NCBI GenBank assembly: GCA_937801655.1
Contig: CALMWC010000005.1
Span: 1,811 to 65,810, forward strand
DNA length: 64,000 bases
Origin: an uncultured Gammaproteobacteria bacterium
GTDB lineage: Bacteria; Pseudomonadota; Gammaproteobacteria; Steroidobacterales; UBA11654
Direction: 5' to 3'
Shown here: piece by piece, positions 3,990 through 9,819 of the stretch
Numbering within the stretch: the first letter of the stretch is position 1
How the letters are laid out: each line of letters starts with the position of its first letter
Position numbers and translations under genes: made by a program
The notes under the pieces: model-generated
Told to the model about the DNA's origin: nothing
The model's input: the letters and a program-made list of their open reading frames with translations, nothing else
Databases searched by the model: none

Positions 3990-4373
3990 ATGGAAGTATT
4001 AAAGTTAAGCTTATTAGTCGGTGTAGGTGGATTCTTTGGAACCTCTCTTCGTTTTATCACCAATGCCTTAGTTGAAAAAATCATACCGGTATCAGTATTT
4101 CCTCTTGGTACAATCTTAGTGAATATCATTGGTTGCTTATGCATCGGTATTTTTACTGGGTATCTCTCTAGTAAAATATCTGAACCTAGTAATTTTTATT
4201 TATTTGTTACAATTGGACTCTTGGGCGGTTATACGACATTCTCAGCATTTGCTTATGAAGCCCAGTTATTTATTCAGAACGGAGAGGTAATTAAACTATC
4301 ACTCTATATTGCCTCACAAGTCATAATTGGTGTTTTTTTAGCATTATTAGGATATAACATTACTAGAGGGTAA
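3990..4373 (+). CDS. crcB: fluoride ion channel CrcB/FluC
   Basis: 127-aa four-TM protein with the CrcB signatures GGFFGTSLRF and GGYTTFSAF. Confidence 0.85.
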   Translation: MEVLKLSLLVGVGGFFGTSLRFITNALVEKIIPVSVFPLGTILVNIIGCLCIGIFTGYLSSKISEPSNFYLFVTIGLLGGYTTFSAFAYEAQLFIQNGEVIKLSLYIASQVIIGVFLALLGYNITRG

Positions 4374-4376
4374 AAG

Positions 4377-4517
4377 GTGTCAGAACAGGCTAATAGAACA
4401 GTTTTAATTACAGGCACATCGTCAGGTGTAGGCGAAGCTTTTGCAGTTCTAGCAAAAACTATACCAAAACGTATTTCTCAATCTATTGCTAGAACGCTAA
4501 CTAAGAGGACCTACTAA
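4377..4517 (+). pseudogene. remnant of a short-chain dehydrogenase/reductase N-terminus
   Basis: GTG-initiated 46-codon ORF VSEQANRTVLITGTSSGVGEAFAVLAK... carries the SDR Rossmann motif TGxxxGxG, then stops at 4515-4517, 2 nt before the next gene. Confidence 0.4.
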
Positions 4518-4519
4518 CT

Positions 4520-5197
4520 ATGTTAAAAAATAATAGAAATAAAATTCTTTTCATCGCAATCTTTTGTTTGATTGTTTCACCCCTCAGTCAAAGTCAAAAC
4601 GGAGGGGAGGGTGAAAGAGAACAAAGCAATGAGCAAATGCCCAATCAATCGCCAATTCAATCAGACTCTATTCCTATGGGTGGCAATGACTATATATACG
4701 GATATGGAGATACTACCTTGGATGAAAAATATCTTAACCGAAAAGATCAATCGCCAATTATAAATCTAACTGGAAAAGCAAAGGTGATTGATGGCGATAC
4801 AATTACTATTAATGGCACGAAAATTAGGTTCAGTGGTATTGATGCTCCTGAAAGTCATTTTTATGGACAAACACAATACTGTCAAAGACCTAATGGCAAA
4901 ATCTGGGCCTGTGGTAAAAAAGCGACTACTAAACTTAAAGAACTCATTAATAATCAGGAAGTTCAATGTACAGATGAAGGAAGAGATAAGTATGACCGAA
5001 CTCTTAGTATTTGTTATGCCAATGGAGTTGATTTGCAATCTGAAATGGTAAAATCAGGTATGGCTATTGCTTATTTAAAATATTCAAGACGTTATGAAAA
5101 TGAGATGGTTGAAGCAATGACCAATAGAGTAGGGATATGGAGTGGAAACTTTCTAGATCCTGAAGATTGGAGAAAAGAAAATAGTAGAAGAAATTAA
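4520..5197 (+). CDS. secreted thermonuclease (staphylococcal nuclease, SNase) family protein
   Basis: Signal peptide followed by SNase-like motifs VIDGDTI, IRFSGIDAPE and DKYDRTL. Confidence 0.75.
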   Translation: MLKNNRNKILFIAIFCLIVSPLSQSQNGGEGEREQSNEQMPNQSPIQSDSIPMGGNDYIYGYGDTTLDEKYLNRKDQSPIINLTGKAKVIDGDTITINGTKIRFSGIDAPESHFYGQTQYCQRPNGKIWACGKKATTKLKELINNQEVQCTDEGRDKYDRTLSICYANGVDLQSEMVKSGMAIAYLKYSRRYENEMVEAMTNRVGIWSGNFLDPEDWRKENSRRN

Positions 5198-7508: not shown

Positions 7509-7919
7509 CTACCCACTCATTACTCTTGGCCATCGATCGTGAACACTGAATTCTAATTCTGGCTCAATGGTCACCACATATAACCTTTGTTCTTGATTCT
7601 CTACGGCAATCAATCCTTGAATCCATTGTCCTCGTATCAGATCAAACCAGTGACTCTTTCCTTCATGATCTTTTTCCATAAAACTAAGAACTGGTATCTT
7701 AACTGGTTTAGGAAACCATCTATCCCAAACACCTGAATGTATTGAATCTAATCTTGCCCATCCACCTAAGGGTAATCTTCCTGACTGTCCTTTTCTTCTT
7801 CCCCAAAGAATTAGTTTTGTTTGATCGTCCTTTGCCATCACTGGGAGTTTTGCTTTTGGATTAGGAAAGTAGACTCTCATATGATCCCCATTGTGATTAT
7901 AAGACACACCTCCACACAT
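7509..7919 (-). CDS. short SRAP (SOS-response associated peptidase, YedK/HMCES)-like protein
   Basis: Starts MCGG (Cys2). By-eye matches to SRAP core blocks: LILWGRR, GGWARLDS, IPVLSFMEKD, VHDRWPRVM. Only 136 aa. Its start overlaps the polymerase stop as TAATG. Confidence 0.55.
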   Translation of the reverse strand: MCGGVSYNHNGDHMRVYFPNPKAKLPVMAKDDQTKLILWGRRKGQSGRLPLGGWARLDSIHSGVWDRWFPKPVKIPVLSFMEKDHEGKSHWFDLIRGQWIQGLIAVENQEQRLYVVTIEPELEFSVHDRWPRVMSG

Positions 7920-9175
7920 TATATTGTTCTCCTATGACCGCTTGGTTTCCAAGCTGGGGCAATGACATCAGGCATACTTGATCGATGTATTAGATTACTG
8001 GGAGCTATTGTTAGATCCCCATATCGTTCATTGATGCAGTCTAGGACTTTATTTTTCTTATTGGAATGATTCTTCTTTTCTTGATTCTCAAAAAAATTAA
8101 TTTGTTGATTGGCTTTACTTGGTTTTATTGCTGTTACTTGGATTTGACTAATCCCTTCACCATGCCATTGTTGATGAATCAATAATTGGCCTAATTTCAT
8201 GATGCATATTCCATCATCCGTTGGATATTGACTGTGCATTTTTTGACCAAGCCAGCCATATTTAGAGCGAAAACCTATATAAAATTTAGATGCTTTTAGA
8301 TTGTGTCTTCTAAGTCGGGATCCAACTTTTTCACTCATATGTTGCAAGTATGTTTTGATAGTTTGAATATCTTTAGTATTAGGCGGCATTACTTTGCCAT
8401 GTCCAATAGATTTAGGTTCAGCAATATGAGTGTGTATTTTTTCTGGATCTTTACCTTGGGCCATAAGCCAGATACGTCGTCCTGGATGACCAAAATGTTT
8501 ACCCAGTAAACTAATAGGAATATTTTTCATATCACCACAAGTATAGACTCCATAAGATTGTAAGAAGCCACCAATACCTTTTGCAATACCACATAACTCA
8601 GTAACTGGGACATCATGGAGAGTGCTTTCTGATTTGCTTGGATGCACTACAGTTATGCCATTGGGTTTGTTTTGTTTAGCAGCATACTTTGCAGTTGTTT
8701 TATCACCGCTGATGCCAATGGAACAGGGTAGACCCGATAGTTCAAAAACCAATTCTTTTATTTGTTGAGCCAGTTTCTCAGGTGAGCCCATAATTTTTTG
8801 GCAACGAGTCATATCAAGAAATGCTTCATCAACTGAGTAGACCTCTATATCAGGAGTTACTTTATTTAAACCTTGCATTATTTTTGTAGAGATTTCAGCA
8901 TAACGTTTTGGCCTAGAAGGCCTTTGAATTAATTCTGGACAAAGTTTGCGTGCTTCTTTAAGGCGCATACCAGTTTTGATTCCCCAATACCTAGCCTCAT
9001 AGGAACACGTAATAATGCAAGTGCCCTGAATGCCGTTAGTAACCGCAATAGGCCGTCCAAATAACTCTGGCTGATCCATTTGCTCAATGGATGCAAAGAA
9101 TGAGTTCATATCAACCAACGCAATTATTCTAGGCCAAGGTGAGTAATCACTGATAACTTCTGAGTTGTCCAACAA
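7919..9175 (-). CDS. Y-family DNA polymerase (DinB/UmuC-like)
   Basis: Catalytic motifs LVDMNSFFASIEQ and YSVDEAFLD, plus the SIGISGDKTTAKYA and HhH-like regions. Its 5' end overlaps the 3' end of lexA by 29 nt. Confidence 0.85.
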   Translation of the reverse strand: MLDNSEVISDYSPWPRIIALVDMNSFFASIEQMDQPELFGRPIAVTNGIQGTCIITCSYEARYWGIKTGMRLKEARKLCPELIQRPSRPKRYAEISTKIMQGLNKVTPDIEVYSVDEAFLDMTRCQKIMGSPEKLAQQIKELVFELSGLPCSIGISGDKTTAKYAAKQNKPNGITVVHPSKSESTLHDVPVTELCGIAKGIGGFLQSYGVYTCGDMKNIPISLLGKHFGHPGRRIWLMAQGKDPEKIHTHIAEPKSIGHGKVMPPNTKDIQTIKTYLQHMSEKVGSRLRRHNLKASKFYIGFRSKYGWLGQKMHSQYPTDDGICIMKLGQLLIHQQWHGEGISQIQVTAIKPSKANQQINFFENQEKKNHSNKKNKVLDCINERYGDLTIAPSNLIHRSSMPDVIAPAWKPSGHRRTI

Positions 9176-9755
9176 CTACTCCTTGTATCTGAACCCGTTC
9201 CGGTTCGTAGGCAATGGTTTCCATAAACTTATTTTCAGGCATTAAAAGAACCATTCCATCTGGTAATCTTTTGAGTCGCTTTAGGGTTGCTTCAATACCA
9301 TCAATTAATGCAACGATAATGTCTCCATTATTAGCAGTATTTTGATGTTTTATTATGACAGTATCACCATCAAGAATACCTGCCTCCATCATTGAGTCTC
9401 CTGTAACTTGTAAAGCAAATCTATCTGCATTCATTATGAAATCGGCTAAATTAATCTCATCTCGACCCTCAATGGCTTCAATAGGATGGCCTGCAGCAAT
9501 TCGACCTAAAAGGGGAATTGTTGGCACTAGTGGAATGTTTTCATTGGCTTCTGGATTTAAATGAATACCACGTTTTCGATTTGGCAAAATAGTGATCAAG
9601 TGAGACGATTCTAATGATTTTAAATATCGATGCACAACTCCTCTTGAATTGATACCGATACCTTGCGCTATCTCTTTCAAGGTAGGAGCATAGCCTTTTT
9701 CCATAAAGTATTGCTGGATAAATTTAAAAGTTTTTTTCTCGCTTGGCGTTAACAT
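9147..9755 (-). CDS. lexA: LexA repressor (S24 autopeptidase)
   Basis: N-terminal wHTH (YAPTLKEIAQGIGINSRGVVHRYLKSLE), Ala-Gly cleavage site (RIAAGHP), catalytic Ser (GDSM) and Lys (ATLKRL). Confidence 0.9.
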   Translation of the reverse strand: MLTPSEKKTFKFIQQYFMEKGYAPTLKEIAQGIGINSRGVVHRYLKSLESSHLITILPNRKRGIHLNPEANENIPLVPTIPLLGRIAAGHPIEAIEGRDEINLADFIMNADRFALQVTGDSMMEAGILDGDTVIIKHQNTANNGDIIVALIDGIEATLKRLKRLPDGMVLLMPENKFMETIAYEPERVQIQGVVVGQLRSYQ

Positions 9756-9790: not shown

Positions 9791-9819
9791 ATAATAGAGA
9801 ACAAATAGAGAACATTCAA
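9791..9819 (-). promoter_or_regulatory. predicted lexA promoter (TTGAAT-N17-TATTAT) with a GTTC-N7-GTTC direct repeat in the spacer (candidate LexA operator)
   Basis: The minus strand reads TTGAAT GTTCTCTATTTGTTCTC TATTAT. On the plus strand, 9793-9814 is a perfect tandem duplication of AATAGAGAACA. The site lies 35 nt upstream of the lexA ATG. Confidence 0.5.

Follow-up and report, generated by a model that had tools for sequence, protein, structure and literature searches.

SRAP proteins such as HMCES and YedK shield abasic (AP) sites, and HMCES has been reported to inhibit mutagenic translesion synthesis. In SRAP proteins, Cys2 becomes the N-terminal residue once the methionine has been removed. 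Here we describe a short SRAP-like protein, called mini-SRAP in the following, which is encoded on contig CALMWC010000005.1 of an uncultured gammaproteobacterium (assembly GCA_937801655.1). The window, which is the whole stretch of DNA that was analysed, covers 64,000 nucleotides. Mini-SRAP is a genuine, shortened member of the SRAP superfamily. Overall, we assign a probability of roughly 60% to the reading that it is an SOS-induced polymerase accessory subunit which keeps the abasic-site chemistry of the N-terminal cysteine.

The SRAP domain was defined by Aravind and colleagues in 2013 as a domain of 220-260 residues, and operons of SRAP, DinB and LexA as well as stand-alone ImuB-C domains were noted at the same time (PMC3765255). 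More recently, a 2026 paper in Nucleic Acids Research described six UmuC-SRAP-like-RecA modules from Planctomycetes, with SRAP-like proteins of 137-156 aa which all start with MC (PMC12926913). For the UmuC-like polymerase, the SRAP-like protein and RecA, AlphaFold-Multimer gave ipTM values of ~0.82-0.88, and the SRAP-like proteins were termed putative PolY-binding regulatory subunits (PMC12926913). Catalytic residues, a linkage to LexA and the gammaproteobacterial clade are not addressed in that paper (PMC12926913).

In the window, mini-SRAP is the last of three genes on the minus strand, in the order lexA, Y-family polymerase, mini-SRAP. Its open reading frame (ORF) has the following features:

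7509..7919, minus strand: mini-SRAP coding sequence, 136 aa, N-terminus MCGGVSYNHNG.
7914-7916, minus strand: codon of Cys2, read on the raw sequence.
7758-7760, minus strand: codon of Trp54 (cca, reverse complement TGG), in the column of SRAP Asn75, so that NAR becomes WAR.
7674-7676, minus strand: codon of Glu82 (ttc, reverse complement GAA), aligned with YedK Glu105.
7539-7541, minus strand: codon of His127 (gtg, reverse complement CAC), in HDRWP as compared to YedK His160 in HDRRP.
7929..7933, minus strand: AGGAG, a Shine-Dalgarno-like sequence 9 nt 5′ of the mini-SRAP ATG, inside the 3′ end of the polymerase gene.

An earlier note, made by eye from the DNA letters and translated ORFs, had proposed a short SRAP with an MCGG start at this position. 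The ORF is present as described, and the four strings quoted there (LILWGRR, GGWARLDS, IPVLSFMEKD, VHDRWPRVM) all occur in its translation. With 136 aa, as compared to 222-223 aa for YedK, the protein is ~39% shorter, so the estimate that about 40% of the canonical domain is absent was right. The cysteine that defines SRAP membership directly follows the initiator methionine (MCGG). Translational coupling to the polymerase, which had also been proposed, is visible as a 1-nt overlap of the polymerase stop and the mini-SRAP start at 7919 (TAATG), together with the AGGAG upstream of the ATG.

The assignment to SRAP comes from structure prediction, from profile comparison and from the relatives of mini-SRAP. 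Two AlphaFold-type (AF2) models were computed, model 1 from an alignment of 47 sequences (pLDDT 87.5) and model 2 from a diverse alignment of 91 sequences (pLDDT 95.5, pTM 0.89). In a Foldseek comparison of model 1 to PDB, the top matches are exclusively YedK (6kbz, 2icu, 6nuh, 6kcq, 6kbu) and BB2244 (2bdv), with a probability of 1.00, TM(query) values of 0.55-0.62 and E-values of ~1e-3, while the next match has E 0.6 and TM 0.26. For model 2, YedK (6kbu) is the sole match below E 0.9. Non-SRAP matches are ~500- to 1000-fold worse in E-value over the two models. A search of viral structures in BFVD with mini-SRAP did not return a meaningful match.

When the 91 diverse family members were scanned individually, 20 of them touched the Pfam SRAP domain (PF02586) below its threshold, the best at E 1.1e-6, and no other Pfam family recurs in more than three. 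These matches are colinear with the domain. For example, residues 17-143 of P0249 correspond to positions 37-171 of 214 in the Pfam hidden Markov model (HMM), and this protein also matches PHROG 1599, a profile of 225 positions, with E 1.2e-5. The Pfam gathering threshold of 27.1 bits is not reached by mini-SRAP, and relatives score 15-19.5 bits. Mini-SRAP has no match in a PADLOC scan and only a chance-level match in PHROGs.

For profile-profile comparison, hhalign was used. Against a shallow enterobacterial YedK alignment, only the VT..HDRxP block was aligned and the probability was 2-3%, which is due to the low diversity of that alignment. A scan of viral contigs for SRAP diversity yielded no sequence with an identity to YedK of 85% or less. 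Alignment A5 holds 13 SRAP sequences, among them YedK and eight SRAPs from phages, SPbeta YoqW included, with identities as low as 25%. Against A5, the unselected family alignment of 91 sequences gave a probability of 72% (E 3.4e-5) in local and 90% in global mode. A subset of 19 sequences picked for their similarity to YedK (A4) gave 96.7% (E 3.6e-10, local) and 98% (E 1.7e-12, global). In the global alignment, the MC of mini-SRAP is placed on the MC of YedK. The earlier note had inferred the SRAP relationship by eye and had named HMM-HMM comparison and structure prediction as checks. Both came out in its favour, with hhalign significant against diverse SRAPs (72-98%, E 3e-5 to 2e-12), YedK and BB2244 on top of the Foldseek lists, and the sub-threshold Pfam matches of 20 of the 91 relatives pointing in the same direction.

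The residues which carry the chemistry are well defined for YedK. There, R77, T149 and R162 form a phosphate anchor, and each alanine mutant abolishes binding of single-stranded DNA; the thiazolidine pocket consists of W103, I147, T149 and P164; E105 and H160 are the catalytic residues for ring opening, Schiff-base formation and reversal (PMC6821365, PMC9436759). In the hhalign alignment to A5, the following positions of mini-SRAP and YedK correspond to each other: W39-G40 to W61-G62, W54-A55-R56 to N75-A76-R77, S59 to T80, F80-M-E82 to W103-F-E105, V115-V-T117 to I147-V-T149 and H127-D128-R129-W-P131 to H160-D161-R162-R-P164. Global hhalign adds C2, which corresponds to C2 of YedK. The mapped positions C2, R56, S59, F80, E82, V115, T117, H127, D128, R129 and P131 are invariant or nearly so in the close clade. 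The triad of the phosphate anchor (R56, T117, R129) and the catalytic residues Glu82 (FxE) and His127 (HDRxP) are kept and are invariant. Because anchor, pocket and catalytic positions are conserved, we conclude that mini-SRAP has kept the chemistry-bearing core of SRAP.

The missing parts lie at both ends of this core. The segment between Cys2 and a YNVAP-like motif is much shorter than in YedK, where it contains a helix, and mini-SRAP ends 9 residues after His127, so that the alignment stops at YedK residue ~170-176. On all of these points the reading by eye was accurate. Its SRAP blocks are matched column for column by hhalign against the diverse SRAP alignment; Cys, Glu and His are retained (C2 as C2, E82 as E105, H127 as H160); the Asn of NARxE, which had not been obvious, is indeed absent and is replaced by Trp54; and the segment after the N-terminus as well as the whole C-terminal region are lacking in the global alignment to YedK.

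Mini-SRAP belongs to a large family. A search of 5.8 billion proteins, with hits clustered at 90%, returned 805 homologues. The best 120 of these 805 have 65-95% identity and nearly all have 135-143 aa; they have neither names nor Pfam domains. When 1.84 billion representatives of 50% clusters were searched with a profile, 562 families were found at E<=1e-3, mostly of 130-160 aa. In a scan with alignment A1, for which one genome per species was used, relatives occur in at least 333 genomes. The carriers are mostly uncultured Gammaproteobacteria, among them Woeseiaceae, Arenicellales, Ectothiorhodospiraceae, Chromatiales, Thioalkalispiraceae and Sedimenticolaceae. Among 47 close homologues, 46 positions are invariant, including M1, C2, G4, W39, G40, R41, R42, W54, A55 and R56 in the first half of the protein and F80, M81, E82, D84, Y114, V116, T117, H127, R129, W130 and P131 further downstream. 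The ratio of nonsynonymous to synonymous substitutions (dN/dS) is 0.05 and 0.09 with respect to the two nearest orthologues, synonymous sites being saturated in most comparisons beyond these. The mini-SRAP ORF is a real gene under strong purifying selection, and family size and dN/dS go far beyond chance expectation.

Upstream of mini-SRAP, the other two genes of the operon are located:

7919..9175, minus strand: Y-family DNA polymerase, ~410-418 aa, exact start uncertain, with the catalytic D...DE residues.
9147..9755, minus strand: lexA, first gene of the operon, with helix-turn-helix and S24 domains; Ala-Gly, Ser and Lys motifs are visible.

The polymerase matches the Pfam domains IMS (2.6e-46) and IMS_C (6.2e-12). 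NCBIfam models for Pol IV stay below their cut-off, and the UmuC model is much weaker. LexA is assigned by TIGR00498 above its cut-off (E 2.2e-47), with support from Pfam. Synteny was analysed for 80 orthologous loci (L086-L165), of which 67 have enough flanking sequence for the polymerase. In 62 of these 67, the gene immediately upstream of mini-SRAP, in the same orientation, is a polymerase homologue, and lexA follows further upstream, again on the same strand, in 37 of 61 loci. Four of the five exceptions keep the polymerase nearby and one lacks it. In three of them, a small ORF which is DUF559-like by eye is located between polymerase and mini-SRAP (L103 4563-4973, L114 4460-4861, L118 ~4357-4884), while in L111 (4374-6660) the order is lexA, mini-SRAP, polymerase, with the mini-SRAP and polymerase genes overlapping. 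The earlier note had argued from coupling to the polymerase that mini-SRAP is functional, and adjacency to the polymerase in 62 of 67 loci supports that argument. Given this near-constant position right behind a predicted damage-inducible polymerase, mini-SRAP is probably a partner of this enzyme that senses lesions.

The C-terminus of the polymerase (window positions 7919-8140; 69 orthologues) contains a QxxLF clamp-like motif, a RecA-NT-like segment and a near-invariant tail of the form RSsMP(N/D)VIAPAWKPxGHR(Q)TI. The segment vmDxiNxrYGexxlAP resembles the RecA-NT motif by eye, and Pfam DUF4113 does not match the polymerase. We regard this tail as a candidate interface for mini-SRAP or RecA.

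Expression of the operon is predicted to be under SOS control. Two features are found upstream of lexA:

9799..9813, minus strand: putative LexA operator GTTCTCTATTTGTTC (GTTC-N7-GTTC), located in the spacer of a promoter-like site.
9791..9819, minus strand: sigma-70-like promoter upstream of lexA, with TTGAAT, a 17-nt spacer and TATTAT; a consensus match only.

A CTGT-N8-ACAG box is absent across the whole 64-kb window. The GTTC-N7-GTTC type occurs in 32 of 37 orthologous operons that are led by lexA. Of the 28 operons led by the polymerase, 15 have a CTGTATATAATTACAG-like box and 8 have the GTTC type. Counting either motif, a LexA-box-like sequence is found in 55 of 65 operon promoters, as compared to ~0.2% of shuffled upstream regions. 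The module of lexA, polymerase and mini-SRAP is thus predicted to be SOS-controlled almost everywhere it occurs. The GTTC-N7-GTTC direct repeat is the LexA-box type known from Alphaproteobacteria, though the host is represented by a gammaproteobacterial metagenome-assembled genome; the lexA of the operon may code for a second LexA with its own specificity. Where an operon has no lexA of its own, the canonical gammaproteobacterial CTGTATATAATTACAG mostly takes the place of this repeat.

From these observations we propose the following mechanism. Cleavage of LexA would lead to the co-production of polymerase and mini-SRAP, which would act as partners, mini-SRAP taking the small-subunit role that UmuD′ plays in Pol V and the polymerase tail contributing clamp-binding and RecA-NT-like motifs. 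R56, T117 and R129 of mini-SRAP would bind the phosphate 5′ of the abasic site. The free Cys2 and the ring-opened abasic sugar would then form a thiazolidine, assisted by E82, H127 and the pocket residues F80, V115, T117 and P131. In this way, mini-SRAP would probably recognise abasic sites of the template where primer ends have stalled, and capture them reversibly on behalf of its polymerase. Such a reversible capture is probable, since the SRAP anchor and the residues of the Cys2 chemistry are kept, and on the same residue-level grounds mini-SRAP probably forms crosslinks. A more specific version may also be envisaged, in which mini-SRAP is a catalytic, reversibly AP-capturing subunit within an SOS-induced complex of Y-family polymerase and RecA, in the place of UmuD′ in Pol V. 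At stalled primer ends, Cys2 would anchor the polymerase at AP sites of the template and shield these from cleavage, and Glu-catalysed reversal would release them for bypass. We offer this version tentatively, as one that may well turn out to be wrong.

A number of observations weigh against an accessory subunit with retained abasic-site chemistry. Mini-SRAP itself has no Pfam or NCBIfam match at E<=10, the curated SRAP models included, and sequence searches of PDB, with the single sequence and with profiles A1 and A3, returned only chance matches (albicidin-resistance protein, BLIP-II, PsaD repeats); with profile A4, YedK came up at no better than E 0.43. Structurally, the agreement is moderate, with a root-mean-square deviation of 4.6-6.4 A and a TM of ~0.6, and it covers only the core. 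The choice of subset A4 by similarity to YedK introduces a selection bias, so the 72-90% obtained with unselected sequences are the safer figures. At the residue level, Asn75 of the SRAP NAR motif is replaced by Trp54, which is invariant in the close clade. This loss may matter little because the N75A mutation has only a slight effect on crosslinking by YedK (PMC6821365, PMC9436759). In addition, R4 of YedK is replaced by Gly4 and W106 by Lys83, and W67/W68 are without a clear counterpart. The C-terminal third is absent from mini-SRAP, and with it the region of R206, N210 and V211, which in YedK contact the DNA 3′ of the lesion (PMC6821365). A covalent adduct on the template would block the polymerase rather than help it unless the adduct is reversed.

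Conservation in the wider family and the presence of canonical SRAPs add to these objections. While Cys2 is invariant in the 47 close homologues and 84 of 103 diverse representatives begin with Met-Cys, only 65 of the 103 retain Glu82 and only 40 retain His127, with Tyr (26) and Phe (14) as the commonest substitutes for the latter. All three residues are kept in about one third of the representatives. The distant members P0130 and P0131, which have Tyr or Phe in place of His127, still sit behind the same type of polymerase, so that catalysis cannot explain the pairing in every case; it is perhaps not what holds the wider family together. Furthermore, a full-length SRAP adjoins mini-SRAP in five loci:

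L114 5279-6088, L137 5546-6220, L163 5357-6088 and L138 386-1195: full-length SRAP downstream of mini-SRAP.
L144 622-1287: full-length SRAP upstream of mini-SRAP.

These proteins start with MCGRF, score 175-201 bits against the SRAP HMM and cover its positions 1 to ~220. A canonical SRAP gene was not found within the 64-kb window. Since both coexist in one operon, the short and the full-length SRAP do not seem to be redundant and are likely to do different jobs.

Several alternative readings of mini-SRAP have to be considered. It might be what is left of a full-length SRAP gene that has decayed through truncation in this genome, as its size (~39% below that of YedK) and the lack of a Pfam or NCBIfam match could suggest. 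This reading is refuted by the hundreds of homologues of the same length in both family searches and by purifying selection with a dN/dS of 0.05-0.09, and neither the compact, confidently predicted AF2 model nor a synteny that is conserved in at least 62 loci fits a relic. The earlier note had asked whether homologues of similar length exist and had leaned towards function. Such homologues are abundant (130-160 aa), this copy is not uniquely truncated, and family lengths, dN/dS and adjacency to the polymerase all support that view. Equally refuted is the interpretation of mini-SRAP as a stand-alone ImuB-C domain. ImuB-C is likewise small, occurs with DinB and LexA and has a conserved C-terminal Trp with basic residues (PMC3765255), and mini-SRAP ends with HDRWPR. 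However, three published ImuB-C sequences score below zero bits with the mini-SRAP family profile, and Foldseek returns SRAPs at the top, while ImuB-C has been described as a different beta-barrel fold (PMC12926913).

The main rival is a purely structural or regulatory polymerase subunit of the kind of UmuD′ or YolD, which would be derived from SRAP but would have lost the AP-site chemistry, Cys2, Glu and His serving for folding or protein contacts. The treatment of the Planctomycete homologues as PolY-binding regulatory subunits (PMC12926913) fits this idea, as do the persistence of the polymerase pairing in spite of the replacement of His127 in ~60% and of Glu82 in ~37% of the representatives, the loss of the C-terminal DNA-contact region, R4 and W106, and the canonical SRAP genes that share the operon in some genomes. 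On the other hand, the N-terminal Met-Cys is retained in 84 of 103 representatives and in all five Planctomycete sequences, which is hard to explain without N-terminal-cysteine chemistry and therefore counts against a purely structural subunit, and the whole set of anchor, pocket and catalytic residues is invariant in the clade of the window. We thus consider this rival to be unlikely, but it is a serious one. A lesser rival, which we consider improbable, is an active N-terminal-cysteine enzyme with another substrate or reaction than YedK, such as 3′-unsaturated aldehyde (3′-PUA) ends from AP lyases, other DNA aldehydes, or a thiol autopeptidase or switch. YedK also reacts with 3′-PUA ends and is less dependent on His160 in this reaction (PMC9436759), which would fit the variability of this His across the family. 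An altered substrate geometry is implied by the exchange of Asn75 for Trp54 and by the loss of DNA contacts on the 3′ side. Yet no sequence feature singles out another substrate. The autopeptidase idea for SRAP (PMC3765255) has been superseded by the thiazolidine mechanism (PMC6821365, PMC9436759), and cleavage would be needless for a Cys that directly follows the start Met.

A few relatives of mini-SRAP occur in other contexts. A mini-SRAP-like domain is found at the C-terminus of several longer proteins of 508-610 aa (P0155, P0174, P0190, P0247, P0260, P0261) and at L175 867-2693. By eye, membrane segments at the N-terminus are followed in these proteins by regions that resemble a coiled coil and a winged helix, and a fusion to a polymerase could be ruled out for the longer proteins. 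Several of these have kept none of Cys, Glu and His. In front of one of them lies an SLT lytic-transglycosylase gene, a hint at a conjugative element. A distant stand-alone member (P0159, L176 38-451) has Tra_M-like and HTH_3 genes as neighbours but no visible polymerase gene, and L154 carries a family member without a nearby polymerase. Some members of the family may thus ride on mobile elements.

Shortened SRAPs also occur in phages. The SRAP of Achromobacter phage CF418P1 (L171 301-828), with 175 aa, ends ~10 residues past HDRRP, nearly as mini-SRAP does, and a SRAP on a Listeria phage contig (L172 203-775) is C-terminally shortened, too. This suggests at least two independent losses of the C-terminal third of SRAP.

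In summary, a stripped-down SRAP is tied to a translesion polymerase by operon structure, coupling and predicted SOS control in hundreds of mostly uncultured Gammaproteobacteria. If mini-SRAP acts as in the more specific version above, a translesion polymerase would have a subunit that senses lesions, and SRAP shielding would be coupled to translesion synthesis, in contrast to the inhibition of mutagenic synthesis reported for HMCES. If it forms crosslinks, the pair would provide a simple bacterial two-gene system for the hand-over between abasic-site protection and bypass, and ~135 residues that lack the C-terminal third may be sufficient for SRAP chemistry. Should crosslinking be absent, an enzyme fold would have been recruited as a polymerase subunit. 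There is also an annotation gap, as this large family is without a Pfam or NCBIfam model and its members are currently annotated only as 'hypothetical protein'.

Compared to YedK and HMCES, mini-SRAP shares the N-terminal Met-Cys, the core fold as judged by Foldseek, the SOS link, the colinear motifs WG..., (N/W)AR, F-x-E, VT and HDRxP, and the residues of the R/T/R phosphate anchor and the thiazolidine pocket together with Glu and His. It differs by its length (136 as compared to ~220 aa), being shortened after Cys2 and having nothing beyond YedK residue ~170, by Trp for Asn75, Gly for Arg4 and Lys for Trp106, by scoring below the threshold of every curated model, and by being tied to a Y-family polymerase gene in an operon that it can share with a canonical SRAP. 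The likeness to UmuD′ of Pol V and to YolD/YqjX is a functional analogy, a small SOS-co-regulated protein being co-encoded with a Y-family polymerase that has a RecA-NT-type tail, which for the polymerase of the window is a resemblance by eye. The folds are unrelated and N-terminal-cysteine chemistry is absent from these proteins, UmuD′ being a dimer derived from an S24 peptidase and activated by RecA-mediated cleavage. Stand-alone ImuB-C resembles mini-SRAP as a small ORF in lexA/polY operons but has no sequence similarity and another fold.

The closest relatives are the Planctomycete SRAP-like proteins. The mini-SRAP family HMM scores five of the published sequences with 71.6, 60.0, 52.0, 48.6 and 28.1 bits, and on the basis of these scores we place them in one family with mini-SRAP. 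A short SRAP-like protein beside a Y-family polymerase is thus an idea that was already published in 2026, with a sister clade noted in passing; we have not found a description of the large lexA-linked clade, of its complete YedK-like residue set or of the residue-level mapping. Both groups are short, start with MC, are encoded beside a Y-family polymerase and have been proposed to be small polymerase subunits. The Planctomycete proteins come from another phylum, the UmuC-like polymerase of Gimesia being 31% identical to that of the window, and they contain additional residues following the N-terminus, while their Arg, Thr and His positions are more degenerate. The lexA-led operon and the full YedK-like residue set, in contrast, are features of the clade to which the window belongs.

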